A stretch of 64,000 nucleotides of DNA from Escherichia coli (lineage in GTDB: Bacteria > Pseudomonadota > Gammaproteobacteria > Enterobacterales > Enterobacteriaceae). Each line of letters opens with the position of its first letter. Positions within the stretch are counted from its first letter, which is position 1. A model generated the notes under the pieces. That model saw nothing but the letters and a program-made list of their open reading frames with translations, searched no databases and was not told where the DNA came from. The translations under genes and the position numbers were made by a program. Of the stretch, positions 15,552-32,148 are shown piece after piece. The stretch lies in assembly GCF_013315695.1 (NCBI RefSeq), contig NZ_CP054353.1, one strand, 5' to 3'.

Positions 15552-15993
15552 TTTATTTACCTCGGGTACTTATGCTGATTTTTATTATTATGGGGAAGGT
15601 GTTATTTATGAGTTTTATTTATGCCGTTACGGCAATGAACTCGGGAATTAGTATAATCAGCGCGAGAATAATAATCATTGTGCAAATGCTAATTTAATTA
15701 ATACTATTTAAATATTATTTTGAGCATATGCACATAAGGTTGCGCGCTAAAGCACAGATTTGCGCTTTACCTTGCCGGGCGGCACTGCAATCCCTGAAAT
15801 GATTGACATTGATCACATTTCTGCGTTTAAACTCCTGACATTCTTATTTCACCCAATGAAGTAATTTATTTTTAAATGAGACCAGGTCCTCATTTTAATA
15901 ACCCCTGGCTGGAGAATATTGCACAATGGCCAACATCGAAATCAGACAAGAAACGCCAACTGCGTTTTATATAAAAGTTCACGACACAGATAA

Positions 15994-16002
15994 TGTGGCA
16001 AT
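15994..16002. repeat. left copy of 9-bp IS1 target-site duplication TGTGGCAAT
   Basis: Identical 9-mer directly flanks both IS1 ends (15994..16002 and 16771..16779). Confidence 0.9.
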
Positions 16003-16017
16003 GGTAATGACTCCAAC

Positions 16018-16521
16018 TTATTGATAGTGTTTTATGTTCAGATAATGCCCGATGACTTTGTCATGCAGCTCCACCGATTTTGAGAACGACAGCGACTTCC
16101 GTCCCAGCCGTGCCAGGTGCTGCCTCAGATTCAGGTTATGCCGCTCAATTCGCTGCGTATATCGCTTGCTGATTACGTGCAGCTTTCCCTTCAGGCGGGA
16201 TTCATACAGCGGCCAGCCATCCGTCATCCATATCACCACGTCAAAGGGTGACAGCAGGCTCATAAGACGCCCCAGCGTCGCCATAGTGCGTTCACCGAAT
16301 ACGTGCGCAACAACCGTCTTCCGGAGCCTGTCATACGCGTAAAACAGCCAGCGCTGGCGCGATTTAGCCCCGACATAGCCCCACTGTTCGTCCATTTCCG
16401 CGCAGACGATGACGTCACTGCCCGGCTGTATGCGCGAGGTTACCGACTGCGGCCTGAGTTTTTTAAGTGACGTAAAATCGTGTTGAGGCCAACGCCCATA
16501 ATGCGGGCTGTTGCCCGGCAT
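16018..16521 (-). CDS. insB: IS1 InsB (transposase C-terminal part; expressed as InsAB' by -1 frameshift)
   Basis: 167-aa [56 protein letters not shown]... Confidence 0.93.
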
Positions 16522-16715
16522 CCAACGCCATTCATGGCCATATCAATGATTTTCTGGTGCGTACCGGGTTGAGAAGCGGTGTAAGTGAACTGCAGTTGCC
16601 ATGTTTTACGGCAGTGAGAGCAGAGATAGCGCTGATGTCCGGCGGTGCTTTTGCCGTTACGCACCACCCCGTCAGTAGCTGAACAGGAGGGACAGCTGAT
16701 AGAAACAGAAGCCAC
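16440..16715 (-). CDS. insA: IS1 InsA (transposition repressor / transposase N-terminal part)
   Basis: 91-aa [45 protein letters not shown]... with zinc-finger-like Cys pairs. Confidence 0.93.
16458..16466 (-). promoter_or_regulatory. IS1 programmed -1 ribosomal frameshift site (A6C motif)
   Basis: Plus strand GTTTTTTAA is the reverse complement of TTAAAAAAC in the insA/insB overlap. Confidence 0.7.
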
Positions 16716-16770
16716 TGGAGCACCTCAAAAACACAATCATACACTAAATCAGTAAGTTGGCAGCATCACC

Positions 16771-16779
16771 TGTGGCAAT
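16771..16779. repeat. right copy of 9-bp IS1 target-site duplication TGTGGCAAT
   Basis: See left copy. Confidence 0.9.
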
Positions 16780-18422
16780 TATTGTTAATGATAATGGCCT
16801 GAAAGCAGGAACGCGTTTTCCGGATGAGCTGGAATTAATTGAACATATTCCCCAGGGGCATAAAGTCGCATTGCTGGACATTCCAGCTAATGGTGAAATT
16901 ATTCGTTATGGCGAAGTGATTGGTTACGCCGTGCGCGCAATCCCACGCGGAAGCTGGATCGACGAATCAATGGTTGTACTACCGGAAGCGCCGCCGTTAC
17001 ACACGCTGCCACTGGCAACCAAAGTCCCGGAACCCTTACCGCCGCTGGAAGGATACACCTTTGAGGGCTATCGCAATGCCGATGGCAGCGTGGGCACTAA
17101 AAACCTGCTCGGCATCACCACCAGCGTCCACTGTGTAGCAGGCGTGGTGGACTATGTAGTAAAAATCATTGAACGCGATCTGCTACCGAAATACCCGAAC
17201 GTCGATGGCGTGGTGGGGCTGAATCATTTGTACGGCTGTGGCGTGGCGATTAACGCACCGGCGGCAGTTGTGCCTATTCGTACCATCCACAATATTTCGC
17301 TGAACCCTAACTTTGGCGGCGAAGTAATGGTGATTGGTCTGGGTTGTGAAAAGTTGCAGCCTGAGCGCCTGCTGACTGGAACGGATGATGTGCAAGCTAT
17401 TCCAGTAGAAAGCGCCAGCATTGTCAGTTTGCAGGATGAAAAGCATGTCGGCTTTCAGTCCATGGTCGAGGATATTTTGCAGGTCGCCGAACGCCATTTG
17501 CACAAACTGAATCGACGGCAGCGAGAAACCTGTCCGGCTTCAGAACTGGTTGTTGGCATGCAGTGCGGTGGCAGCGATGCGTTTTCTGGCGTAACGGCAA
17601 ACCCGGCGGTTGGGTATGCGTCTGATCTACTGGTGCGCTGCGGCGCAACGGTGATGTTTTCAGAAGTCACGGAAGTGCGTGACGCGATCCATCTGCTGAC
17701 ACCACGCGCAGTGAACGAAGAGGTCGGCAAACGGCTGCTGGAGGAGATGGAGTGGTACGATAACTATCTCAATATGGGAAAAACCGACCGCAGCGCCAAC
17801 CCTTCGCCGGGCAACAAGAAAGGCGGTCTGGCAAATGTGGTGGAGAAAGCGCTCGGCTCCATTGCTAAATCGGGTAAAAGTGCAATTGTTGAAGTGCTGT
17901 CGCCCGGCCAACGCCCGACTAAACGCGGATTAATTTACGCCGCGACGCCAGCCAGCGATTTTGTCTGTGGCACGCAACAGGTGGCTTCGGGTATCACCGT
18001 GCAAGTGTTTACGACCGGTCGCGGTACGCCGTACGGCCTGATGGCGGTACCCGTCATTAAAATGGCAACCCGCACCGAGCTGGCGAACCGCTGGTTTGAT
18101 TTAATGGATATTAATGCGGGCACCATCGCTACCGGCGAAGAAACTATTGAAGAGGTGGGCTGGAAGTTGTTCCACTTTATTCTCGACGTCGCCAGCGGGA
18201 AGAAGAAAACCTTCTCAGATCAATGGGGACTGCATAACCAGCTGGCGGTGTTTAACCCAGCACCGGTGACCTGATTTCTTTTGGAACGTCCCTCGCAAAA
18301 CATGGCCTTAGTGCCATGTTTTTATTGTTTAAAGTCCCCACGTCCATTAATAATGCATTTGCATTACCTTAGTTCAAGCTTATAATTTGAGCAGAAAACA
18401 GGCTGTAAAAGGACAGTGAATC

Positions 18423-18758
18423 ATGCCCGCTAATGCTCGCTCTCACGCTGTACTGACCACTGAATCAAAGGTCACGATACGCGGACAAACAACTATCCCC
18501 GCGCCAGTGCGTGAGGCCTTAAAACTGAAGCCAGGCCTGGACAGCATTCATTACGAAATTCTGCCTGGTGGGCAAGTATTTATGTGCCGACTGGGAGATG
18601 AACAGGAGGATCATACTATGAATGCATTTTTGCGTTTTCTGGATGCAGATATCCAGAACAACCCGCAAATAACTCGTCCATTCAACATTCAACAAGGAAA
18701 GAAACTTGTCGCAGGCATGGACGTCAACATTGATGATGAGATTGGCGACGACGAATAA
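18423..18758 (+). CDS. prlF: type II antitoxin PrlF (SohA)
   Basis: 111-aa ORF MPANARSHAVLTTESKVTIRGQTTIPAPVREALKL... (AbrB/SpoVT-like swapped-hairpin N-terminus), immediately upstream of yhaV. Confidence 0.88.
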   Translation: MPANARSHAVLTTESKVTIRGQTTIPAPVREALKLKPGLDSIHYEILPGGQVFMCRLGDEQEDHTMNAFLRFLDADIQNNPQITRPFNIQQGKKLVAGMDVNIDDEIGDDE

Positions 18759-19222
18759 TGGATTTTCCACAAAGGGTTAATGGTTGGGCGCTATATGCTC
18801 ATCCCTGTTTTCAGGAAACCTACGACGCTTTAGTTGCCGAAGTTGAGACATTAAAGGGAAAAGATCCTGAAAATTATCAGAGAAAAGCCGCCACAAAGTT
18901 ATTGGCGGTAGTCCATAAAGTGATTGAGGAGCATATCACGGTCAATCCATCATCACCGGCATTCCGTCATGGCAAGTCGTTAGGCTCTGGGAAAAATAAA
19001 GACTGGTCACGGGTAAAATTTGGTGCTGGTCGTTATCGTCTCTTCTTTCGTTATAGTGAAAAAGAGAAAGTCATCATTCTGGGATGGATGAACGATGAAA
19101 ACACTCTGCGCACCTACGGTAAAAAAACAGATGCCTATACCGTATTCAGCAAAATGTTAAAAAGAGGACATCCTCCTGCCGACTGGGAAACCCTCACCCG
19201 AGAGACAGAAGAAACCCATTGA
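18758..19222 (+). CDS. yhaV: type II toxin YhaV (ribonuclease)
   Basis: 154-aa ORF MDFPQRVNGWALYAHPCFQETYDAL...; start overlaps prlF stop by 1 nt (ATGA). Confidence 0.88.
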   Translation: MDFPQRVNGWALYAHPCFQETYDALVAEVETLKGKDPENYQRKAATKLLAVVHKVIEEHITVNPSSPAFRHGKSLGSGKNKDWSRVKFGAGRYRLFFRYSEKEKVIILGWMNDENTLRTYGKKTDAYTVFSKMLKRGHPPADWETLTRETEETH

Positions 19223-19276
19223 TGGTGTTCACAATGCCCGCCGAACGCATTCGTGTTGACCAGCGGGCACCCTTTC

Positions 19277-20086
19277 TCACTCCCCGACCAGAATCACTTC
19301 AACCCCAGCCTTTCGCAGTCCTTCCAGACTATCCGCAGGAATGCCTTCATCAACAATGATCATGTCGATACGTTGAGTATCAATGATCTTATGTAAACTG
19401 GAACGGTTGAACTTACTGGAATCGGTGACCACGATGATCCGTTCCGCAACTTCGCACATCCGACGGTTTAAACGGGCTTCATCTTCATTATGCGTGCTGA
19501 CGCCGCGCTCCAGATCGATCGCATCTACGCCAAGAAACAGCATATCGAAGTGGTAATTTTGCAGCGATTGTTCAGCCTGATCGCCGTAAAAAGATTGCGA
19601 CTGACGGCGCAAATGCCCGCCGGTCATCAGCAGCTCAACGCCTTCCGCTTCCAGCAACGCATTAGCCACGTTCATACCGTTGGTCATCGCAATTACGTCA
19701 GTGTGCTTGCGCATCAGACGAGCAATCTCAAAAGTGGTGGTCCCGGAATCGAGGATTACCCGATGACCTGGCTGAATCAACTCAACGGCAGCTTTCGCAA
19801 CGCTGCGTTTCATTGCGGTGTTCAGCGCGCTTTTATCTTCCACTGATGGCTCGACTGACGGCGTCGTGCTATCGCAGATCAACGCGCCGCCATAGGCACG
19901 CACAGCGATCCCCTGCTTTTCCAGAAACGCCAGATCGTTGCGGATCGTCACAGTAGATACACCATACAACGCCGATAGATCATTAACTTGCACACTTCCT
20001 TGCTGGCGCAGGCGTTGAATAATCTGCTCTCGTCGCTCACTGGTGCCTGTCACTCGCTTCTCGCCTGAAGCGTCGGTATTACTCAT
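19277..20086 (-). CDS. agaR: DeoR-family repressor AgaR of the aga regulon
   Basis: 269-aa ORF with N-terminal HTH ([39 protein letters not shown]) and DeoR C-terminal domain. Confidence 0.9.
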
Positions 20087-20099
20087 AGTAAGTCCTTTC

Positions 20100-20305
20100 G
20101 TAAAACTTTCGTTTCATTTCGTTTTGCCTATTAACGCCTTTCTATTAAGCAAATGCAAGCCCACCTTACCCATTGGCGCAAGCTACTCTCGTTTCAGTGG
20201 CTTTCATTATGTTTCTTTTGTGAATCAGATCAGAAAACCATTATCTTTCGTTTTATTTTTATCTCACCATGGCGCAGTATCAACTGAAACAAAACGAAAG
20301 ATTAA
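20100..20305. promoter_or_regulatory. agaR/kbaZ divergent control region with repeated AgaR operator-like motifs
   Basis: CTTTCGTTTCATTTCGTTTTG (20106..20126), TTATCTTTCGTTTTATTTT (20241..20259) and inverted GAAACAAAACGAAAG (20286..20300). Confidence 0.6.
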
Positions 20306-20334
20306 TATCGCAGTAATCTGAACTGGAGAGGAAA

Positions 20335-21615
20335 GTGAAACATCTGACAGAAATGGTGAGACAGCACAAAGAGGGCAAAACAAATGGGATTTATGCCGTT
20401 TGTTCCGCACATCCGCTGGTGCTGGAAGCTGCAATCCGCTACGCCAGTGCAAACCAAACGCCGTTACTGATTGAAGCAACCTCCAATCAGGTGGACCAGT
20501 TCGGCGGTTATACCGGAATGACGCCCGCCGATTTTCGCGGCTTTGTTTGTCAGCTCGCCGACTCGTTGAATTTCCCACAGGATGCGTTGATTCTGGGTGG
20601 CGACCATCTGGGGCCAAACCGCTGGCAAAACCTGCCTGCCGCTCAGGCAATGGCCAATGCCGATGATTTGATTAAAAGCTACGTGGCGGCAGGATTCAAA
20701 AAAATTCACCTTGATTGCAGCATGTCCTGTCAGGACGATCCGATTCCCTTAACTGATGACATCGTGGCCGAACGCGCCGCTCGTCTGGCGAAAGTGGCGG
20801 AAGAAACCTGCCGTGAACATTTTGGCGCGGCCGATCTGGAGTATGTCATTGGTACCGAAGTACCGGTACCTGGCGGCGCGCATGAAACCTTAAGCGAGCT
20901 GGCGGTCACCACGCCGGATGCCGCCCGCGCCACGCTGGAAGCCCATCGTCACGCCTTTGAAAAGCAAGGTCTGAGTGCCATCTGGCCACGCATCATTGCT
21001 CTGGTGGTACAACCCGGCGTCGAATTCGATCACACCAACGTTATTGATTATCAGCCCGTCAAAGCGACCGCCTTAAGCCAGATGGTCGAAAACTACGAAA
21101 CGCTGATTTTCGAAGCGCACTCTACCGATTACCAAACGCCGCAATCGCTGCGCCAGCTGGTGATTGACCACTTTGCCATTCTGAAAGTTGGCCCGGCGCT
21201 GACCTTCGCCCTGCGTGAAGCTCTGTTCTCTCTGGCGGCGATTGAAGAAGAACTGGTACCAGCAAAAGCCTGTTCTGGTCTGCGTCAGGTGCTGGAAAAC
21301 GTGATGCTCGACCGCCCGGAATACTGGCAAAGCCACTACCACGGTGACGGCAACGCGCGTCGTCTGGCGCGTGGTTATAGCTACTCGGATCGCGTGCGCT
21401 ATTACTGGCCGGACAGCCAGATTGATGACGCTTTCGCTCATCTGGTTCGTAATCTGGCGGATTCACCAATTCCGCTACCGCTGATCAGCCAGTATTTGCC
21501 GCTGCAGTACGTGAAAGTTCGCTCCGGCGAGCTGCAGCCAACGCCACGGGAACTCATTATCAACCATATTCAGGACATCCTGGCGCAGTACCACACAGCC
21601 TGTGAAGGCCAATAA
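20335..21615 (+). CDS. kbaZ: tagatose-1,6-bisphosphate aldolase non-catalytic subunit KbaZ (AgaZ)
   Basis: 426-aa ORF from [39 protein letters not shown]... Confidence 0.9.
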
Positions 21616-21637
21616 GCAAAACAAAGAGGAACACGCT

Positions 21638-22111
21638 ATGCCAAATATTGTTTTAAGTCGGATTGATGAACGCTTGATTCACGGTCAGGTCGGCGTTCAG
21701 TGGGTCGGATTTGCGGGGGCAAATCTGGTGCTGGTAGCCAACGACGAGGTTGCCGAAGATCCGGTACAACAAAACCTGATGGAAATGGTACTGGCAGAAG
21801 GGATCGCCGTACGTTTCTGGACGCTGCAAAAAGTCATCGACAACATTCATCGCGCCGCCGATCGACAGAAAATCCTGCTGGTTTGTAAAACACCTGCCGA
21901 TTTCCTGACGCTGGTGAAAGGTGGCGTTCCGGTGAATCGCATTAACGTTGGCAATATGCACTACGCCAATGGCAAGCAACAAATCGCCAAAACGGTTTCT
22001 GTGGATGCGGGTGATATCGCAGCATTTAACGACCTGAAAGCCGCTGGGGTGGAATGCTTCGTTCAGGGCGTCCCGACAGAGCCTGCTGTGGACCTCTTTA
22101 AATTACTTTGA
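21638..22111 (+). CDS. agaV: N-acetylgalactosamine PTS EIIB component AgaV
   Basis: ORF 21602..22111; start taken at MPNIVLSRIDERLIHGQVGVQWVG (157 aa), mannose-family IIB. Confidence 0.9.
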   Translation: MPNIVLSRIDERLIHGQVGVQWVGFAGANLVLVANDEVAEDPVQQNLMEMVLAEGIAVRFWTLQKVIDNIHRAADRQKILLVCKTPADFLTLVKGGVPVNRINVGNMHYANGKQQIAKTVSVDAGDIAAFNDLKAAGVECFVQGVPTEPAVDLFKLL

Positions 22112-22121
22112 GGGATTCATC

Positions 22122-22901
22122 ATGGAAATCAGTCTGTTGCAGGCATTCGCGTTGGGCATTATCGCCTTTATCGCTGGCCTGGATATGTTTAACGGCCTAA
22201 CCCATATGCACCGCCCGGTGGTCCTCGGCCCGTTGGTCGGACTGGTACTTGGCGATCTGCATACCGGTATTTTAACCGGCGGTACGCTGGAACTGGTGTG
22301 GATGGGGCTGGCCCCGCTGGCGGGCGCACAGCCGCCTAACGTGATTATCGGTACTATCGTCGGCACGGCGTTTGCCATTACTACTGGCGTGAAACCCGAT
22401 GTCGCGGTCGGTGTCGCCGTACCTTTCGCTGTCGCAGTACAGATGGGGATTACCTTCCTGTTCTCGGTGATGTCCGGCGTGATGTCCCGCTGCGACCGGA
22501 TGGCGGAGAACGCCGATACACGCGGCATTGAACGCGTGAACTATCTGGCACTGCTGGCACTCGGCACGTTCTATTTTCTCTGCGCTTTCCTGCCTATCTA
22601 CTTCGGCGCAGAACATGCAAAAACCATCATTGATGTCCTGCCGCAACGATTAATCGACGGCCTCGGCGTCGCGGGCGGCATCATGCCAGCAATCGGTTTT
22701 GCCGTGTTGCTGAAAATCATGATGAAAAACGTCTACATCCCCTACTTCATCCTGGGCTTTGTTGCCGCAGCCTGGCTCAAGTTACCGGTGTTGGCTATTG
22801 CTGCCGCTGCGCTGGCGATGGCGCTGATCGACTTGCTGCGTAAATCTCCTGAACCGACTCAACCTGCGGCACAGAAAGAGGAATTTGAAGATGGCATCTA
22901 A
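22122..22901 (+). CDS. agaW: N-acetylgalactosamine PTS EIIC component AgaW, full length
   Basis: 259-aa membrane ORF MEISLLQAFALGIIAFIAGLDMFNG...; K-12 has only a truncated remnant. Confidence 0.88.
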   Translation: MEISLLQAFALGIIAFIAGLDMFNGLTHMHRPVVLGPLVGLVLGDLHTGILTGGTLELVWMGLAPLAGAQPPNVIIGTIVGTAFAITTGVKPDVAVGVAVPFAVAVQMGITFLFSVMSGVMSRCDRMAENADTRGIERVNYLALLALGTFYFLCAFLPIYFGAEHAKTIIDVLPQRLIDGLGVAGGIMPAIGFAVLLKIMMKNVYIPYFILGFVAAAWLKLPVLAIAAAALAMALIDLLRKSPEPTQPAAQKEEFEDGI

Positions 22902-23769
22902 TCAAACTACCCTGCCGAACGTCAGTGAAAACGAAGAAACACTGCTGACTGGCGTCAATGAAAACGTGTATGAAGATCAGAGTATTGGCGCGGAGCTGAC
23001 GAAAAAAGATATCAACCGCGTCGCCTGGCGTTCCATGCTGTTACAAGCGTCTTTTAACTACGAACGTATGCAGGCTTCCGGCTGGTTGTACGGTCTGCTG
23101 CCTGCTCTGAAAAAGATCCACACTAATAAACGCGACCTGGCGCGCGCCATGAAGGGGCATATGGGTTTCTTCAATACCCATCCGTTTCTGGTGACGTTTG
23201 TTATCGGCATTATCCTTGCGATGGAGCGTTCTAAGCAGGACGTTAACAGTATTCAGAGCACCAAAATTGCCGTCGGTGCGCCGCTCGGCGGGATTGGCGA
23301 TGCGATGTTCTGGCTAACGCTACTGCCGATTTGTGGCGGGATAGGCGCAAGCCTCGCGCTACAAAGCTCTATTCTTGGCGCAGTCGTCTTTATTGTGCTG
23401 TTCAACGTGGCGCATCTCGGTTTGCGTTTTGGTCTTGCACATTATGCTTACCGCATGGGCGTGGCGGCGATTCCACTCATTAAAGCAAATACCAAAAAAG
23501 TCGGCCATGCGGCATCTATCGTTGGGATGACGGTAATCGGCGCGCTGGTGGCAACCTATGTTCGTTTAAGCACCACGCTGGAAATCACAGCGGGCGACGC
23601 AGTGGTTAAGTTACAGGCTGATGTTATCGACAAACTGATGCCTGCCTTCTTACCACTGGTCTACACCCTGACCATGTTCTGGCTGGTACGCCGCGGCTGG
23701 AGTCCGCTGCGCCTGATTGCGATTACCGTGGTTCTCGGCATCGTCGGTAAATTCTGCCATTTCCTTTAA
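22885..23769 (+). CDS. agaE: N-acetylgalactosamine PTS EIID component AgaE
   Basis: 294-aa membrane ORF, mannose-family IID; overlaps agaW stop; absent from K-12. Confidence 0.85.
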   Translation: MKMASNQTTLPNVSENEETLLTGVNENVYEDQSIGAELTKKDINRVAWRSMLLQASFNYERMQASGWLYGLLPALKKIHTNKRDLARAMKGHMGFFNTHPFLVTFVIGIILAMERSKQDVNSIQSTKIAVGAPLGGIGDAMFWLTLLPICGGIGASLALQSSILGAVVFIVLFNVAHLGLRFGLAHYAYRMGVAAIPLIKANTKKVGHAASIVGMTVIGALVATYVRLSTTLEITAGDAVVKLQADVIDKLMPAFLPLVYTLTMFWLVRRGWSPLRLIAITVVLGIVGKFCHFL

Positions 23770-23786
23770 ATACAATGAGGTATTAG

Positions 23787-24221
23787 ATGTTAAGTATTAT
23801 TTTGACAGGGCATGGCGGATTTGCCAGCGGCATGGAAAAAGCAATGAAGCAAATTCTCGGTGAGCAATCGCAGTTTATCGCCATCGATTTTCCGGAAACC
23901 TCAAGCACCGCGCTGCTTACATCGCAGCTTGAAGAGGCCATCGTCCAACTGGATTGTGAAGACGGCATTGTTTTTCTGACGGATTTGCTGGGCGGCACGC
24001 CGTTTCGCGTAGCTTCAACGCTGGCGATGCAAAAACCGGGCTGTGAAGTGATCACCGGCACCAATTTGCAACTGCTACTGGAGATGGTGCTGGAGCGCGA
24101 AGGGTTAAGCGGTGAAGAGTTCCGTGTGCAGGCGCTGGAGTGTGGACACCGTGGGCTGACCAGTCTGGTGGACGAGTTAGGCCGCTGCCATGAAGAATGT
24201 CCGGTCGAGGAAGGAATATGA
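23787..24221 (+). CDS. agaF: PTS EIIA component AgaF
   Basis: 144-aa ORF MLSIILTGHGGFASGMEKAMKQILGEQ..., mannose-family IIA with His in TGHGGFA context. Confidence 0.85.
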   Translation: MLSIILTGHGGFASGMEKAMKQILGEQSQFIAIDFPETSSTALLTSQLEEAIVQLDCEDGIVFLTDLLGGTPFRVASTLAMQKPGCEVITGTNLQLLLEMVLEREGLSGEEFRVQALECGHRGLTSLVDELGRCHEECPVEEGI

Positions 24222-25351
24222 CACACGTTCTGCGCGCCAGAAGGCTGCTGACTGAAGAGGGATGGCTCGATGACCATCAGTTGCGTATTGCTGACGGTGT
24301 AATCGCAGCAATCGAACCGATTCCAGTGGGCGTGACTGAACGCGATGCGGAACTGCTCTGCCCCGCTTACATCGACACCCATGTACACGGTGGTGCGGGC
24401 GTTGATGTAATGGATGACGCGCCGGATGCGCTCGACAAGCTGGCAATGCACAAGGCACGCGAAGGTGTCGGCAGTTGGTTACCGACCACCGTAACCGCGC
24501 CGCTTAATACCATTCATGCGGCGCTGAAACGTATTGCTCTACGCTGCCAGCGTGGCGGACCTGGTGCGCAAGTGCTGGGGAGTTATCTCGAAGGACCGTA
24601 CTTCACGCCGCAGAATAAAGGCGCGCATCCGCCGGAGCTGTTTCGCGAGCTGGAAATTGCCGAGCTGGATCAATTGATTGCCGTTTCTCAGCACACCTTG
24701 CGCGTGGTAGCGCTGGCACCAGAAAAAGAAGGGGCATTGCAGGCCATCCGCCATCTTAAACAGCAAAACGTACGGGTGATGCTGGGGCATAGCGCGGCGA
24801 CCTGGCAACAAACCCGTGCCGCGTTTGACGCTGGTGCCGACGGCCTGGTGCATTGCTATAACGGGATGACAGGTTTACATCACCGCGAACCGGGAATGGT
24901 TGGCGCGGGATTAACGGACAAGCGCGCCTGGCTGGAACTGATAGCCGATGGTCATCATGTACATCCGGCGGCGATGTCGCTGTGTTGTTGCTGTGCGAAA
25001 GAGAGAATCGTGCTGATCACCGACGCGATGCAGGCAGCCGGGATGCCGGATGGTCGCTATACGTTATGTGGTGAAGAAGTGCAGATGCACGATGGCGTTG
25101 TCCGTACCGCGTCCGGTGGGCTGGCGGGCAGTACGCTGTCTGTCGATGCGGCAGTGCGCAACATGGTCGAGTTGACGGGCGTAACGCCTGCGGAAGCCAT
25201 CCATATGGCATCGCTGCATCCGGCGCGTATGCTGGGTGTTGATGGTGTTCTGGGATCGCTTAAACCGGGCAAACGCGCCAGCGTCGTTGCGCTGGATAGC
25301 GGGCTGCATGTGCAACAAATCTGGATTCAGGGTCAATTAGCTTCGTTTTGA
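24218..25351 (+). CDS. agaA: N-acetylgalactosamine-6-phosphate deacetylase AgaA, full length
   Basis: ORF 24197..25351; start taken at MTHVLRARRLLTEEGW; NagA-like amidohydrolase with HxH motif (DTHVHGGAG). Confidence 0.88.
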   Translation: MTHVLRARRLLTEEGWLDDHQLRIADGVIAAIEPIPVGVTERDAELLCPAYIDTHVHGGAGVDVMDDAPDALDKLAMHKAREGVGSWLPTTVTAPLNTIHAALKRIALRCQRGGPGAQVLGSYLEGPYFTPQNKGAHPPELFRELEIAELDQLIAVSQHTLRVVALAPEKEGALQAIRHLKQQNVRVMLGHSAATWQQTRAAFDAGADGLVHCYNGMTGLHHREPGMVGAGLTDKRAWLELIADGHHVHPAAMSLCCCCAKERIVLITDAMQAAGMPDGRYTLCGEEVQMHDGVVRTASGGLAGSTLSVDAAVRNMVELTGVTPAEAIHMASLHPARMLGVDGVLGSLKPGKRASVVALDSGLHVQQIWIQGQLASF

Positions 25352-25369
25352 TGGTTTGCTCCTTTATTG

Positions 25370-25402
25370 GGCCTTCACTTCCCCCGTAAGGCCTTTTTTT
25401 TT
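25370..25402 (+). terminator. possible rho-independent terminator after agaA
   Basis: GGCCTT ... AAGGCC inverted repeat followed by T9 run. Confidence 0.45.
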
Positions 25403-25577
25403 CTTTCTTTTTGATCTGTGCAGCGGTGTCGGATGCGACGCTGACGCGTCTTCTTCGACCTACGGTACGCCGCATCCGGCAATCGGTGAACATAGCGACG
25501 TTATCACGCAATCCTTTAATCTTCCCTTGTCTTTTCTTTCAATGATCACAAATTTCGTTTTATTTCTTTTTTCTCCA

Positions 25578-25660
25578 TTGAACTTTCAGTTTCTTTTCTA
25601 TAGATTTTAATCAACGAAAGACATCACCAAGTGAAATGAAACGAAAGGTAAGCGAAAGCG
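25578..25660. promoter_or_regulatory. agaS promoter region with AgaR operator-like motifs
   Basis: AACTTTCAGTTTCTTTTC and GAAATGAAACGAAAGG resemble the motifs upstream of kbaZ/agaR. Confidence 0.5.
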
Positions 25661-25701
25661 ACAACGCCCGACGCCAAGTTCATCAGACTAAGGATTGAGT
25701 T

Positions 25702-26856
25702 ATGCCAGAAAATTACACCCCTGCTGCCGCTGCAACCGGTACATGGACTGAAGAAGAGATCCGCCATCAGCCTCGCGCATGGATCCGTTCACTCACCAAC
25801 ATCGACGCGCTACGTTCCGCGCTCAATAACTTCCTTGAACCGTTACTGCGCAAAGAGAATCTGCGGGTAATCCTGACCGGAGCCGGAACCTCGGCATTTA
25901 TCGGTGATATCATCGCGCCGTGGCTCGCCAGCCATACCGGTAAAAACTTCAGCGCCGTACCGACCACCGATCTGGTCACTAATCCGATGGACTACCTGAA
26001 TCCAGCTCATCCGCTACTGTTGATCTCCTTCGGTCGATCCGGCAACAGCCCGGAAAGCGTCGCCGCCGTGGAACTGGCGAATCAGTTTGTACCGGAATGC
26101 TATCACCTGCCGATCACCTGCAACGAAGCGGGCGCTCTTTACCAAAACGCGATCAACAGCGACAACGCGTTTGCCCTGCTGATGCCCGCAGAAACGCACG
26201 ATCGCGGCTTTGCGATGACCAGCAGCATTACCACCATGATGGCCAGCTGCCTCGCGGTTTTCGCACCTGAGACGATCAACAGCCAAACCTTCCGCGATGT
26301 GGCAGATCGTTGCCAGGAAATCCTGACCTCACTGGGCGATTTCAGTGAAGGTGTGTTTGGTTACGCACCGTGGAAACGGATCGTTTATCTCGGCAGCGGT
26401 GGCTTACAGGGCGCAGCACGCGAGTCGGCGCTGAAAGTACTGGAACTGACAGCGGGTAAACTGGCGGCCTTTTATGATTCCCCGACCGGATTCCGTCATG
26501 GACCAAAATCGCTGGTCGATAACGAAACGCTGGTGGTGGTATTTGTCTCCAGCCACCCTTACACCCGTCAGTATGATCTTGATCTGCTGGCAGAACTCCG
26601 CCGCGATAACCAGGCATTGCGCGTAATCGCCATCGCCGCAGAAAGCAACGACGTTATTACCGCCGGTCCACATATCATCCTGCCGCCGTCCCGTCACTTT
26701 ATCGACGTTGAGCAGGCATTTTGCTTCCTGATGTACGCCCAGACGTTTGCACTGATGCAGTCGCTGCACATGGGCAATACGCCGGATACCCCATCAGCCA
26801 GTGGCACCGTTAACCGCGTGGTGCAAGGCGTAATCATTCATCCGTGGCAGGCATAA
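25702..26856 (+). CDS. agaS: SIS-domain galactosamine-6-phosphate deaminase/isomerase AgaS
   Basis: 384-aa ORF MPENYTPAAAATGTWTEEEIRHQPRAW... Confidence 0.9.
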   Translation: MPENYTPAAAATGTWTEEEIRHQPRAWIRSLTNIDALRSALNNFLEPLLRKENLRVILTGAGTSAFIGDIIAPWLASHTGKNFSAVPTTDLVTNPMDYLNPAHPLLLISFGRSGNSPESVAAVELANQFVPECYHLPITCNEAGALYQNAINSDNAFALLMPAETHDRGFAMTSSITTMMASCLAVFAPETINSQTFRDVADRCQEILTSLGDFSEGVFGYAPWKRIVYLGSGGLQGAARESALKVLELTAGKLAAFYDSPTGFRHGPKSLVDNETLVVVFVSSHPYTRQYDLDLLAELRRDNQALRVIAIAAESNDVITAGPHIILPPSRHFIDVEQAFCFLMYAQTFALMQSLHMGNTPDTPSASGTVNRVVQGVIIHPWQA

Positions 26857-27729
<873 letters not shown>

Positions 27730-27880
27730 TCATTAGTTTTTTATGATTTATCCCAATGTACTTCCCGATTAATATCGGGGAGTGCCTTAATGGAAAAGGA
27801 GATAACTAAACCTTAATAAATACATCAGTAAAATATCGCAACAATAATATATTTTAAAAAATTATGGTAATGACTCCAAC

Positions 27881-28384
27881 TTATTGATAGTGTTTTATGT
27901 TCAGATAATGCCCGATGACTTTGTCATGCAGCTCCACCGATTTTGAGAACGACAGCGACTTCCGTCCCAGCCGTGCCAGGTGCTGCCTCAGATTCAGGTT
28001 ATGCCGCTCAATTCGCTGCGTATATCGCTTGCTGATTACGTGCAGCTTTCCCTTCAGGCGGGATTCATACAGCGGCCAGCCATCCGTCATCCATATCACC
28101 ACGTCAAAGGGTGACAGCAGGCTCATAAGACGCCCCAGCGTCGCCATAGTGCGTTCACCGAATACGTGCGCAACAACCGTCTTCCGGAGCCTGTCATACG
28201 CGTAAAACAGCCAGCGCTGGCGCGATTTAGCCCCGACATAGCCCCACTGTTCGTCCATTTCCGCGCAGACGATGACGTCACTGCCCGGCTGTATGCGCGA
28301 GGTTACCGACTGCGGCCTGAGTTTTTTAAGTGACGTAAAATCGTGTTGAGGCCAACGCCCATAATGCGGGCTGTTGCCCGGCAT
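27881..28384 (-). CDS. insB: IS1 InsB
   Basis: 167-aa ORF identical to copy 1 InsB. Confidence 0.93.
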
Positions 28385-28578
28385 CCAACGCCATTCATGG
28401 CCATATCAATGATTTTCTGGTGCGTACCGGGTTGAGAAGCGGTGTAAGTGAACTGCAGTTGCCATGTTTTACGGCAGTGAGAGCAGAGATAGCGCTGATG
28501 TCCGGCGGTGCTTTTGCCGTTACGCACCACCCCGTCAGTAACTGAACAGGAGGGACAGCTGATAGAAACAGAAGCCAC
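28303..28578 (-). CDS. insA: IS1 InsA
   Basis: 91-aa ORF; differs from copy 1 at one residue (CSVTDG vs CSATDG). Confidence 0.93.
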
Positions 28579-28633
28579 TGGAGCACCTCAAAAACACCAT
28601 CATACACTAAATCAGTAAGTTGGCAGCATCACC

Positions 28634-28844
28634 ACAAACGGTACGTAAATTGGTAGAAGGTGGTATTGACCTGAAAGATGTCAACGTCGGCAATATGCAT
28701 TTCTCGGAAGGGAAAAAGCAAATCAGCAGTAAAGTTTATGTCGATGACCAGGATCTCGCGGACTTACGTTTTATTAAACAACGTGGCGTGAATGTTTTCA
28801 TTCAGGACGTCCCTGGCGATCAAAAAGAACAAATCCCTGACTAA
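28634..28844 (+). pseudogene. agaB: agaB (galactosamine PTS EIIB), 5-prime truncated; only about the C-terminal 69 codons remain
   Basis: Frame ...QTVRKLVEGGIDLKDVNVGNMHFSEGKKQISSKVYVDDQDLADLRFIKQRGVNVFIQDVPGDQKEQIPD matches the AgaB C-terminus and begins directly at the IS1 end. Confidence 0.85.
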
Positions 28845-28882
28845 ATCTAAAATCGCCTTAATATTGGTTTGAGGTAATAAAA

Positions 28883-29686
28883 ATGCATGAAATAACCCTA
28901 CTTCAGGGATTATCCCTGGCGGCGTTAGTTTTCGTTCTGGGGATTGATTTTTGGCTGGAAGCCTTATTTTTATTCCGCCCGATAATCGTTTGTACCCTAA
29001 CTGGCGCTATTCTCGGTGATATTCAGACTGGCTTAATTACCGGTGGTCTGACAGAGTTGGCTTTCGCCGGATTAACCCCTGCAGGTGGTGTTCAACCGCC
29101 CAACCCGATTATGGCGGGTCTGATGACCACCGTCATTGCATGGTCTACGGGCGTTGATGCCAAAACGGCAATTGGTCTTGGCCTGCCGTTTAGTTTGTTA
29201 ATGCAGTACGTCATTCTGTTCTTCTATTCCGCTTTCTCATTATTTATGACCAAAGCCGATAAATGCGCAAAAGAGGCGGATACGGCAGCATTTTCCCGAC
29301 TTAACTGGACAACGATGCTCATCGTCGCTTCAGCGTATGCGGTGATTGCTTTCCTCTGTACTTACCTGGCACAAGGGGCGATGCAGGCGCTGGTGAAAGC
29401 GATGCCCGCCTGGCTGACCCACGGCTTTGAAGTGGCTGGCGGTATTCTGCCTGCCGTTGGTTTTGGCTTGCTGCTGCGCGTGATGTTCAAAGCGCAATAT
29501 ATCCCTTACCTGATCGCCGGTTTCCTGTTCGTTTGCTACATCCAGGTCAGCAACCTGTTGCCGGTTGCCGTGCTGGGCGCAGGCTTTGCGGTGTATGAGT
29601 TTTTCAATGCGAAATCCCGGCAGCAAGCGCAACCGCAGCCCGTTGTCAGTAAAAATGAAGAAGAGGACTACAGCAATGGGATCTGA
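28883..29686 (+). CDS. agaC: galactosamine PTS EIIC component AgaC
   Basis: 267-aa membrane ORF MHEITLLQGLSLAALVFVLGIDFW... Confidence 0.9.
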   Translation: MHEITLLQGLSLAALVFVLGIDFWLEALFLFRPIIVCTLTGAILGDIQTGLITGGLTELAFAGLTPAGGVQPPNPIMAGLMTTVIAWSTGVDAKTAIGLGLPFSLLMQYVILFFYSAFSLFMTKADKCAKEADTAAFSRLNWTTMLIVASAYAVIAFLCTYLAQGAMQALVKAMPAWLTHGFEVAGGILPAVGFGLLLRVMFKAQYIPYLIAGFLFVCYIQVSNLLPVAVLGAGFAVYEFFNAKSRQQAQPQPVVSKNEEEDYSNGI

Positions 29687-30467
29687 AATCAGTAAAAAAG
29701 ATATCACCCGTCTGGGCTTTCGTTCGTCACTGCTACAAGCAAGCTTTAACTACGAAAGGATGCAGGCGGGCGGTTTTACCTGGGCGATGTTGCCGATCCT
29801 GAAAAAGATTTATAAGGACGACAAACCGGGCCTAAGCGCGGCGATGAAAGATAACCTCGAATTTATTAATACCCACCCTAATCTGGTCGGATTTCTGATG
29901 GGGTTATTAATTTCGATGGAAGAAAAAGGAGAAAACCGCGACACCATTAAAGGCCTCAAAGTGGCACTGTTTGGCCCAATCGCCGGGATTGGCGATGCGA
30001 TTTTCTGGTTTACCTTATTGCCGATTATGGCGGGAATTTGCTCATCATTTGCCAGCCAGGGAAACCTGTTGGGGCCGATTTTGTTTTTCGCCGTTTACCT
30101 GCTTATCTTCTTCCTGCGCGTCGGCTGGACCCACGTCGGTTATTCAGTCGGCGTGAAGGCGATCGATAAAGTGCGAAAGAACTCGCAGATGATTGCTCGT
30201 TCGGCAACCATCCTCGGGATCACGGTAATCGGCGGGCTGATCGCTTCGTATGTGCATATTAACGTGGTGACATCGTTTGCCATCGACAGTACCCACAGCG
30301 TCGCACTGCAGCAGGATTTCTTCGATAAAGTCTTCCCGAACATTTTACCGATGGCCTACACCCTGCTGATGTATTACTTCCTGCGGGTGAAAAAAGCGCA
30401 TCCGGTGCTGTTAATCGGCGTGACTTTTGTGCTCTCTATTGTTTGTTCCGCATTCGGCATTTTGTAA
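29676..30467 (+). CDS. agaD: galactosamine PTS EIID component AgaD
   Basis: ORF 29565..30467; start taken at MGSEISKKDITRLGFRSSLLQASFNYERMQ (263 aa). Confidence 0.9.
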   Translation: MGSEISKKDITRLGFRSSLLQASFNYERMQAGGFTWAMLPILKKIYKDDKPGLSAAMKDNLEFINTHPNLVGFLMGLLISMEEKGENRDTIKGLKVALFGPIAGIGDAIFWFTLLPIMAGICSSFASQGNLLGPILFFAVYLLIFFLRVGWTHVGYSVGVKAIDKVRKNSQMIARSATILGITVIGGLIASYVHINVVTSFAIDSTHSVALQQDFFDKVFPNILPMAYTLLMYYFLRVKKAHPVLLIGVTFVLSIVCSAFGIL

Positions 30468-31235
30468 ATGGAACGAGGCACTGCGTCTGGCGGTGCCTCT
30501 TTACTTAAGGAATTTCATCCTGTGCAAACCCTTCAACAAGTTGAAAACTATACGGCGTTAAGTGAACGTGCCAGCGAATATTTATTGGCCGTGATCCGTA
30601 GCAAACCGGATGCCGTGATTTGCCTGGCGACCGGAGCCACGCCATTACTGACGTATCATTATTTGGTAGAAAAAATCCACCAGCAGCAGGTTGATGTCAG
30701 CCAGCTTACCTTCGTGAAGCTCGACGAATGGGTGGATCTGCCATTAACGATGCCTGGTACCTGCGAAACTTTCCTACAACAGCATATCGTGCAGCCGCTG
30801 GGGCTGCGTGAAGACCAGCTCATCAGCTTTCGCTCTGAAGAGATAAATGAGACAGAGTGCGAACGGGTAACGAACCTGATTGCGCGCAAAGGCGGTCTGG
30901 ATTTATGCGTTCTCGGATTGGGGAAAAACGGTCATCTTGGGCTGAACGAACCGGGAGAAAACCTGCAACCGGCCTGCCATATCAGTCAACTTGATGCCAG
31001 AACACAGCAACATGAGATGTTAAAAACCGCGGGCCGTCCTGTGACTCGTGGGATCACCTTAGGCCTGAAGGATATTCTCAATGCCCGCGAAGTTTTGTTA
31101 CTGGTGACTGGCGAAGGAAAGCAGGATGCGACAGAACGTTTTCTCACGGCTAAAGTCTCTACCGCTATCCCGGCTTCGTTTTTATGGCTGCATAACTATT
31201 TCACATGCATGATTGATGAGATGTGTCGTCGTTAA
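30468..31235 (+). CDS. agaI: putative galactosamine-6-phosphate deaminase/isomerase AgaI (NagB-like)
   Basis: 255-aa ORF MERGTASGGASLLKEFHPVQTLQQVENY... Confidence 0.88.
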   Translation: MERGTASGGASLLKEFHPVQTLQQVENYTALSERASEYLLAVIRSKPDAVICLATGATPLLTYHYLVEKIHQQQVDVSQLTFVKLDEWVDLPLTMPGTCETFLQQHIVQPLGLREDQLISFRSEEINETECERVTNLIARKGGLDLCVLGLGKNGHLGLNEPGENLQPACHISQLDARTQQHEMLKTAGRPVTRGITLGLKDILNAREVLLLVTGEGKQDATERFLTAKVSTAIPASFLWLHNYFTCMIDEMCRR

Positions 31236-31284: not shown

Positions 31285-32148
31285 TCACTCCCCCTGCTGC
31301 TCCAGCGCATACTTATACAGCGCGTTTTTTTTCACGCCGTGAATCTCTGCCGCCAGCGCCGCCGCTTTCTTCAGCGGAAGCTCAGCCTGTAACAACGCCA
31401 GCGTGCGCAGGGCATCGGCGGGTAAGTCTTCTTCCTGTGCTTTATGGCCTCCGACAATCAGTACCATTTCGCCTTTGCGACGGTTTTCATCTTCTTTGAC
31501 CCACGCCAGCAGCTCGCCAACGGGCGCGCCGTGAATGGTTTCCCAGGTTTTGGTCAGCTCACGCGCCAGAACGACGTAGCGGGATTCGCCTAATACCGCA
31601 ACGATATCTTCCAGGCTATCTAACAGACGGTGGGTAGATTCATAAAAAATCAGCGTGCGCGGCTCCGCTTCAATGGCTTTTAGCGCATCACGGCGGCCTT
31701 TTGATTTGGCAGGTAAAAAGCCTTCATAACAAAAACGATCGGATGGTAAACCCGCGGCGCTTAACGCAGTGATAGCAGCACACGGCCCGGGTAGCGGCAC
31801 CACGCGAATCCCCGCTTCACGGCAGGTACGCACCAGATGGTAGCCAGGATCGTTAATTAGCGGCGTTCCGGCATCGGAAACCAGCGCAATGTTTTGCCCC
31901 TCTTGCAGCTTCGCCAGCAGCGTTTCGGCTTTTTGTTGTTCGTTATGGTCGTGCAGCGCAAACAACCGAGCATTAATCCCAAAATGTTGCAGCAATAAAC
32001 CGGTGTGACGCGTATCCTCGGCGGCAATCAGATCAACGGCCTGTAATACCTCCAACGCACGCTGGGTGATATCCGCCAGATTGCCGATTGGCGTCGGTAC
32101 AATGTAAAGCTGGCCCTGAGAATTATCCGCCGATTGGTGTTGTTTCAT
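31285..32148 (-). CDS. rsmI: 16S rRNA C1402 2'-O-methyltransferase RsmI (YraL)
   Basis: 287-aa [38 protein letters not shown]... Confidence 0.92.

Follow-up and report, generated by a model that had tools for sequence, protein, structure and literature searches.

The window, by which we mean the whole 64,000-nucleotide stretch of Escherichia coli DNA analyzed here, carries the toxin–antitoxin (TA) genes prlF and yhaV between two directly oriented copies of IS1. The pair had been predicted from the sequence alone. It is real and intact, and both open reading frames (ORFs) begin and end exactly as predicted. The module and its upstream region comprise the following features.

18297–18322, plus strand: terminator-like hairpin after garD, with a 10-bp stem followed by a T run.
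18351–18366, plus strand: palindrome TAATGCA-tt-TGCATTA (TAATGCAttTGCATTA), an inverted repeat that overlaps the −35 hexamer; candidate PrlF operator.
18358–18386, plus strand: putative prlF-yhaV promoter, TTTGCA, 17-nt spacer, TATAAT (consensus scan, 10/12 matches).
18423–18758, plus strand: prlF, antitoxin, 111 amino acids (ORF; Pfam PF15937; NCBIfam NF007429; 109/111 identical to K-12 PrlF).
18758–19222, plus strand: yhaV, toxin, 154 amino acids, an mRNA endoribonuclease of the RelE clade (ORF; Pfam PF11663; identity to the K-12 protein).

PrlF matches the Pfam family PrlF_antitoxin (PF15937; E = 4.4e-40, 136.3 bits against a cutoff of 32) and the NCBIfam PrlF equivalog model NF007429 (164.8 bits against a cutoff of 125), with a weak AbrB-domain match as well. 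YhaV matches Pfam Toxin_YhaV (PF11663; E = 7.8e-54, 181.9 bits, cutoff 35). These scores are far beyond chance. No NCBIfam model matched the toxin, and a PDB sequence search with both proteins returned no genuine relative, its sole match, ThreeFoil (E = 0.002), arising by chance. YhaV is identical to the K-12 protein at 154 of 154 residues. PrlF, which has an N-terminal DNA-binding region of AbrB type and an acidic C-terminus, differs from its K-12 counterpart by two substitutions, Q39L and K83I. The 156 bp upstream of prlF differ from K-12 at a single base (155/156), and the promoter-like site and the palindrome are both present, in agreement with K-12. The predicted names prlF and yhaV are thus correct, because the family matches, the identity to K-12 (100% for YhaV, 98% for PrlF), and the near-identical promoter region all point to the same genes.

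The stop codon of prlF (TAA, 18756–18758) shares one nucleotide with the start codon of yhaV (ATG, 18758–18760). The original prediction had the length of this overlap right and its motif wrong; read directly, the sequence is TAATG and not ATGA. The compact type II layout it described is borne out, with the antitoxin gene immediately preceding the toxin gene on one strand and a 1-nt overlap. Gene order, strand, and overlap, the family models for PrlF, and the model and characterized protein for YhaV together mark the pair as a type II PrlF-YhaV system, and all defining features of such a system that are open to testing here are present. The TAATG overlap probably couples translation of the toxin to that of the antitoxin. 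The palindrome is a plausible PrlF operator, and the hairpin at the end of garD would insulate the TA operon against read-through from garD and IS1 A.

How the module would work can be drawn from published studies of K-12, whose toxin is identical, with the reservation that PrlF here is the Q39L/K83I variant. PrlF is an antitoxin of the AbrB superfamily that binds DNA and controls its own operon by autoregulation (PMC5408214). K-12 YhaV, a member of the RelE clade, has been reported to give a ribosome-dependent cleavage pattern (PMC8546651); an earlier report described its RNase activity as ribosome-independent in vitro (PMC5408214). YhaV-induced growth arrest has been described as reversible and is neutralized by PrlF (PMC11838884). 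In the window, prlF and yhaV would be transcribed from their own promoter. PrlF would neutralize YhaV by forming a complex with it and would repress the operon, as in the published K-12 work. Free YhaV would cut mRNA on the ribosome, leading to reversible growth arrest.

Of 5426 complete E. coli genomes, 5164 have the module, nearly always as a single chromosomal copy. In every examined genome that keeps both garD and agaR, including K-12, AF3, and MSB1_4I, it lies between the two. Four matches labeled as plasmids were considered and rejected as plasmid carriage: three are records of 4.8–4.9 Mb, and one is a 353-kb record with the chromosomal tdc-gar-aga-yra order. These PLSDB records (NZ_CP134663.1, NZ_CP141089.1, NZ_OL790696.1, and NZ_MG591698.1) are probably mislabeled chromosomes or chromosome fragments. 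Among the 262 genomes without prlF-yhaV, EC42405 (L002 1–6100) has different genes upstream of agaR, namely chb-like PTS genes, a 6-phospho-beta-glucosidase, and a second agaR-like repressor. Absence of prlF-yhaV is not in all cases the result of an IS1 deletion. As part of an overall explanation that we consider very probable, the locus is the ordinary, already known prlF-yhaV operon of E. coli at its native site between garD and agaR.

The two IS1 copies, the genes that they interrupt or adjoin, and the interval between them are as follows.

15926–16002, plus strand: 5′ stub of garD, 77 nt, severed by IS1 A; it translates to MANIEIRQETPTAFYIKVHDTDNVA (coordinates from the AF3 annotation).
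15994–16002 (left) and 16771–16779 (right): 9-bp target-site duplication of IS1 A, TGTGGCAAT (alignment; single-copy in AF3).
16003–16770, minus strand: IS1 copy A, 768 bp, interrupting garD after nt 77 (alignment; Pfam PF03811, PF12759, and PF03400).
16018–16521, minus strand: InsB′ of IS1 A (ORF).
16440–16715, minus strand: InsA of IS1 A (ORF).
16458–16464: A6C frameshift site of IS1 A.
16771–18274, plus strand: remainder of garD, nt 69–1572, inside the bracketed interval.
16771–27865: bracketed interval, holding the 3′ part of garD, prlF, yhaV, agaR, kbaZ, agaV, agaW, agaE, agaF, agaA (annotated nagA), agaS, and kbaY.
27866–28633, minus strand: IS1 copy B, 768 bp, oriented as A, with 2 differences from A and no target-site duplication.
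28634–28844, plus strand: 3′ remnant of agaB, 211 of 477 nt, what remains after a 305-bp deletion beginning at the right end of IS1 B.

Both copies belong to IS1. Each is 768 bp long, carries insA and insB′, and matches PF03811, PF12759, and PF03400; imperfect terminal inverted repeats and the A6C site were checked on copy A. They differ from each other at 2 positions, and their longest uninterrupted identical run is 675 bp. The perfect 9-bp duplication TGTGGCAAT shows IS1 A to be a simple insertion. Copy A is absent from AF3 and MSB1_4I, both of which have an intact garD, and the exact junction between garD and IS1 A has no match among the 5426 complete E. coli genomes. A TTG-initiated ORF of 505 amino acids (16757–18274) begins within the IS1 end and runs into garD. 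It could yield a truncated GarD if the IS1 end supplies transcription.

Copy B has a different history. Its flanks, AAAAATTAT on the left and ACAAACGGT on the right, form no 9-bp duplication. AF3 carries an IS1 at the identical site with the duplication AAAAATTAT intact and with agaB intact. Relative to AF3 the window lacks 305 bp (AF3 L003 34727–35031), and the 5′ 266 nt of agaB are gone. The missing duplication at IS1 B is explained by this IS1-adjacent deletion. MSB1_4I has the same 305-bp-deletion junction as the window, with a partial IIB gene annotated there. By this comparison, an IS1-adjacent deletion at IS1 B has already occurred in the lineage shared by the window and MSB1_4I.

AF3 (NZ_OZ547117.1) and MSB1_4I (NZ_LR898874.1) are close relatives in the collection, and their chromosomes are nearly identical to the window. 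MSB1_4I is collinear with it across all 64 kb, the only differences being IS1 A and six single-base changes. The gene order of the interval is native to E. coli and is collinear with AF3 and MSB1_4I at >99.9% identity. These states give an order of events. IS1 B inserted between kbaY and agaB (step 1, the state seen in AF3). A 305-bp IS1-adjacent deletion then truncated agaB (step 2, the state seen in MSB1_4I). Finally, garD received IS1 A in its AT-rich 5′ end (step 3, seen in this window only). The comparison indicates that the IS1 bracket is recent and strain-specific, that the two IS1s arrived separately, and that the module did not come with them.

Several further differences were seen in and around the bracket. 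Of the seven single-nucleotide polymorphisms (SNPs) against AF3 in unique DNA, five lie within the 11-kb bracket (18844, 20239, 23411, 26346, and 26640), with a binomial estimate of p ~0.016; the change at 18844, in yhaV, is synonymous. SNP clustering inside the bracket was dropped as a candidate signal, given that against the closer MSB1_4I only three of five SNPs (16771–39230) lie inside. Chance, or a short recombination tract in AF3, probably accounts for the excess against AF3. Farther along the window (20335–31235 and 31285–32148), the lineage has a complete aga cluster, with agaE, agaF, and agaA present, unlike in the K-12 deletion, and is without the yraHIJK fimbrial operon; agaI is followed directly by rsmI.

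The original prediction had pointed out that recombination between the two IS1 copies would remove toxin and antitoxin genes together. The coordinates agree, and a crossover between A and B would take out 11,863 bp. The predicted product is garD′-IS1-′agaB, with the junction ...gataatgtggcaat-IS1-acaaacggtacg... The sugar-catabolism genes of the interval are dispensable, and the 11.9 kb, both TA genes included, would be lost by recombination or by IS1-adjacent deletion.

Natural deletions of the region were collected with a chimeric query that joins the K-12 left flank, the TA module, and the yraJ-lpoA right flank, such that only genomes with a deletion of the region bring the flanks together. 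The flanks are joined by deletion in 77 of 5426 genomes. Among the 60 genomes listed of these 77, about 35 are without the TA segment and about 25 keep at least prlF, as classified by coverage and annotated gene names and verified by inspecting 17 genomes. IS1 is present at every inspected junction (17/17), in variants 96–99.9% identical to copy A. A second query, the garD 5′ end joined to an IS1 end, found 16 genomes in which an IS1 lies within the start of garD or close to it. Most of the inspected deletion genomes have GarP, GarL, and GarR proteins as in K-12 and carry 15–40 IS1 copies. Mapped to K-12 coordinates, 12 distinct junction pairs remove the whole prlF-yhaV module.

74-2: left end at garD nt 107, right end in agaD.
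LR-31 and 300490: left end at garD nt 121, right end at yraJ nt 677.
MIN9: left end at garD nt 262, right end in yraI.
EA7 and SL124: left end at garD nt 178, right end in the agaI-yraH spacer.
LR-64-1 and APEC_AN-25: left end at garD nt 178, right end in agaI.
EC812A1: left end at garD nt 216, right end in yraI.
LH13-b: left end at garD nt 161, right end in the kbaY-agaB spacer.
2018-11-3CC: left end in the garD-prlF spacer, right end in yraH.
GD33: left end at garD nt 379, right end in yraI.
F3_13_1_3: left end at garD nt 211, right end in yraI.
63-2: left end in the garP-garD spacer, right end in agaB.
PEC41: left end in garP, right end at yraJ nt 677.

Since two of these junction pairs share one endpoint each, the set represents at least 10 independent losses. 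LH13-b has the predicted garD′-IS1-agaB architecture and is the closest natural analog of the product expected from A and B; its right junction is the kbaY-agaB site at which PT62 has a resident IS1. The deletion strains are rich in IS1 and differ from the window in background; this exact bracket gave rise to none of them. In LH13-b, 300490, and HCM-25C-3 the chimeric query has a single place, so these genomes hold no second copy of prlF-yhaV. Repeats that align near rnpB explain the four query places in 74-2; such tandem repeats are a feature of K-12-type genomes, and none were found near rnpB in the window. In the other deletion genomes with more than one query place, a second TA copy is presumably absent.

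Not all of the changes found take the module whole. PT62 (L014 1073–1537) keeps the antitoxin and has a yhaV with an internal stop. In NRZ99027-2 and three sister isolates (L020 7338–7559), an IS1 deletion cuts yhaV at nt 222 and prlF is kept. In PSJ-07 the deletion starts 59 nt into agaR, about 110 bp past yhaV, and the module is intact. The reverse state, toxin kept and antitoxin lost, was not met among the genomes looked at, an incidental observation rather than the result of a systematic search.

IS1 junctions in the first ~380 nt of garD lie at nt 77, 107, 121, 161, 178, 211, 216, 262, and 379. This 5′ stretch has a GC content of 40–45%, against 50–60% in the remaining gene. IS1 prefers AT-rich targets, and the apparent clustering of junctions at the 5′ end of garD fits this preference.

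These deletions bear directly on whether the module guards the interval. A stabilizing, or addiction, effect was raised as speculation in the original prediction, and as a strong effect it finds no support: 12 IS1 junction pairs delete the module whole. Local addiction would mean that after an IS1–IS1 deletion stable YhaV persists once the labile PrlF is gone, with growth arrest or death of the deletant as the result, so that garD-aga is measurably protected. There is a precedent for a TA module lowering the recovery of neighboring IS–IS deletions (Pilla et al. 2017, PMC5629016). In the window the toxin gene is intact and encodes the same protein as the toxic YhaV of K-12, and some IS1 deletions end just to the right of yhaV (PSJ-07) or take only the 3′ half of the toxin gene (NRZ99027-2). 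Against such protection, the natural deletions take toxin and antitoxin together in 12 distinct junction pairs, which represent no fewer than 10 independent events, and at least three of the lineages hold no second copy of the module. Whole-module loss is also not visibly depleted, at about 35 genomes without against about 25 with part of the module among the 60 listed; being a comparison of fixed deletions, these counts establish that loss is possible and do not give its rate. The module is moreover chromosomal and single-copy, and prlF-yhaV was reportedly among the ten TA loci deleted by Maisonneuve et al. in 2011. Strains with ten TA loci deleted are viable (PMC5296605), and the arrest caused by YhaV is reported to be reversible (PMC11838884). 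Our literature search turned up no study of post-segregational killing by PrlF-YhaV. We regard local addiction as improbable. The roughly 25 of 60 genomes that keep prlF, together with the PSJ-07 endpoint, could hint at some endpoint bias, and a modest quantitative effect on the recovery of deletants, for example a growth penalty from residual YhaV, is possible.

Addiction would be moot if the module had decayed, that is, if the PrlF substitutions or a regulatory change had made it inert. PrlF does carry Q39L and K83I relative to K-12, and natural yhaV pseudogenes exist elsewhere (PT62 and NRZ99027-2). This reading is very unlikely, however: neither frame is shortened, YhaV agrees 100% with the K-12 protein, and only 1 base has changed in the promoter and operator region. 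MSB1_4I and AF3 have the same prlF and yhaV sequences or proteins, and an intact toxin beside a dead antitoxin would be counter-selected.

IS1 composite transposons such as Tn9 share the architecture seen here, direct IS1 copies flanking a segment. That the window holds a Tn9-like transposon that brought or mobilizes prlF-yhaV and the aga genes is hardly credible: although two intact direct IS1 copies with intact outer ends surround the 11.1-kb segment, the outer flanks share no common duplication (TGTGGCAAT left, ACAAACGGT right), IS1 A owns a private 9-bp duplication, the cargo is in native order as in relatives without IS1 A, prlF-yhaV is not found on true plasmids, and a composite transposon would show one duplication common to its outer ends and a cargo foreign to the locus, neither of which is seen.

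We return, then, to a native prlF-yhaV operon around which IS1 copies have recently and separately settled. The module is in all probability not a strong barrier to loss of the interval, to judge from the natural deletions, and this statement forms part of the same very probable explanation. On the best reading, the window shows a region of recurring IS1 deletions at an intermediate, pre-deletion stage. Either the region is mutationally prone to such events, as a hot spot, or loss of gar, aga, or yra genes may be favored by selection. A bolder proposal, which we put forward tentatively and think somewhat doubtful, is that in IS1-rich E. coli the garD-aga-yra stretch is a hot spot at which IS1 deletions recur, with the window as a rare pre-deletion intermediate, about two dozen structures without the TA module, and endpoints that perhaps bear a weak TA footprint. 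If true, the locus would be a natural system in which to measure whether a chromosomal TA module makes its own deletion costly at all.

The useful outcome is a negative one. That a chromosomal TA module guards an interval bracketed by IS copies is a plausible idea, but no strong effect of this kind is evident here, because IS1 has deleted the module many times in nature. This agrees with the notion that, as addiction elements, RelE-type modules on chromosomes are weak or ineffective. The IS1 deletions that recur across garD-aga-yra may also interest those working on how IS elements drive genome reduction in E. coli of commensal and livestock origin.

The nearest known system is PrlF-YhaV of K-12 (SohA-YhaV; b3129-b3130; Schmidt et al. 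2007), which has the same genes, the same garD-agaR locus, and the same 1-base overlap. The window differs from it by the two PrlF substitutions and in the neighborhood: here garD is disrupted by IS1, the aga cluster that has suffered a deletion in K-12 is complete, and yraHIJK is absent.

A second comparison is with MvpAT, a VapBC system of the Shigella flexneri plasmid pINV. When MvpAT was moved beside the pathogenicity island, IS–IS deletions of the island were sharply reduced (Pilla, McVicker and Tang 2017, PMC5629016). As with MvpAT, a type II TA module here sits inside a segment that can be deleted via direct IS copies. MvpAT, however, is plasmid-borne, and both its post-segregational killing and its local effect have been shown experimentally, whereas PrlF-YhaV is chromosomal, bacteriostatic, of RelE type, and repeatedly deleted in natural genomes. 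MvpAT-like retention would make loss of module and neighbors strongly counter-selected and deletants rare; in our genome comparison this is not the pattern seen.

The deletions themselves resemble those around nfsB in clinical E. coli, where IS1-adjacent deletions of 11–66 kb arise in 2–99 per million cells (Wan et al. 2023, PMC10569738). Deletions of that type start right at an IS1 end and take out tens of kilobases of dispensable chromosome, and the 305-bp deletion and the garD-yraJ deletions of other genomes share this anatomy. The window differs in being still undeleted, with its two IS1 copies. With Tn9-type transposons the window shares a direct IS1 pair flanking a segment; it differs from them in having no common outer target duplication, a native chromosomal cargo, and IS1s that arrived separately.
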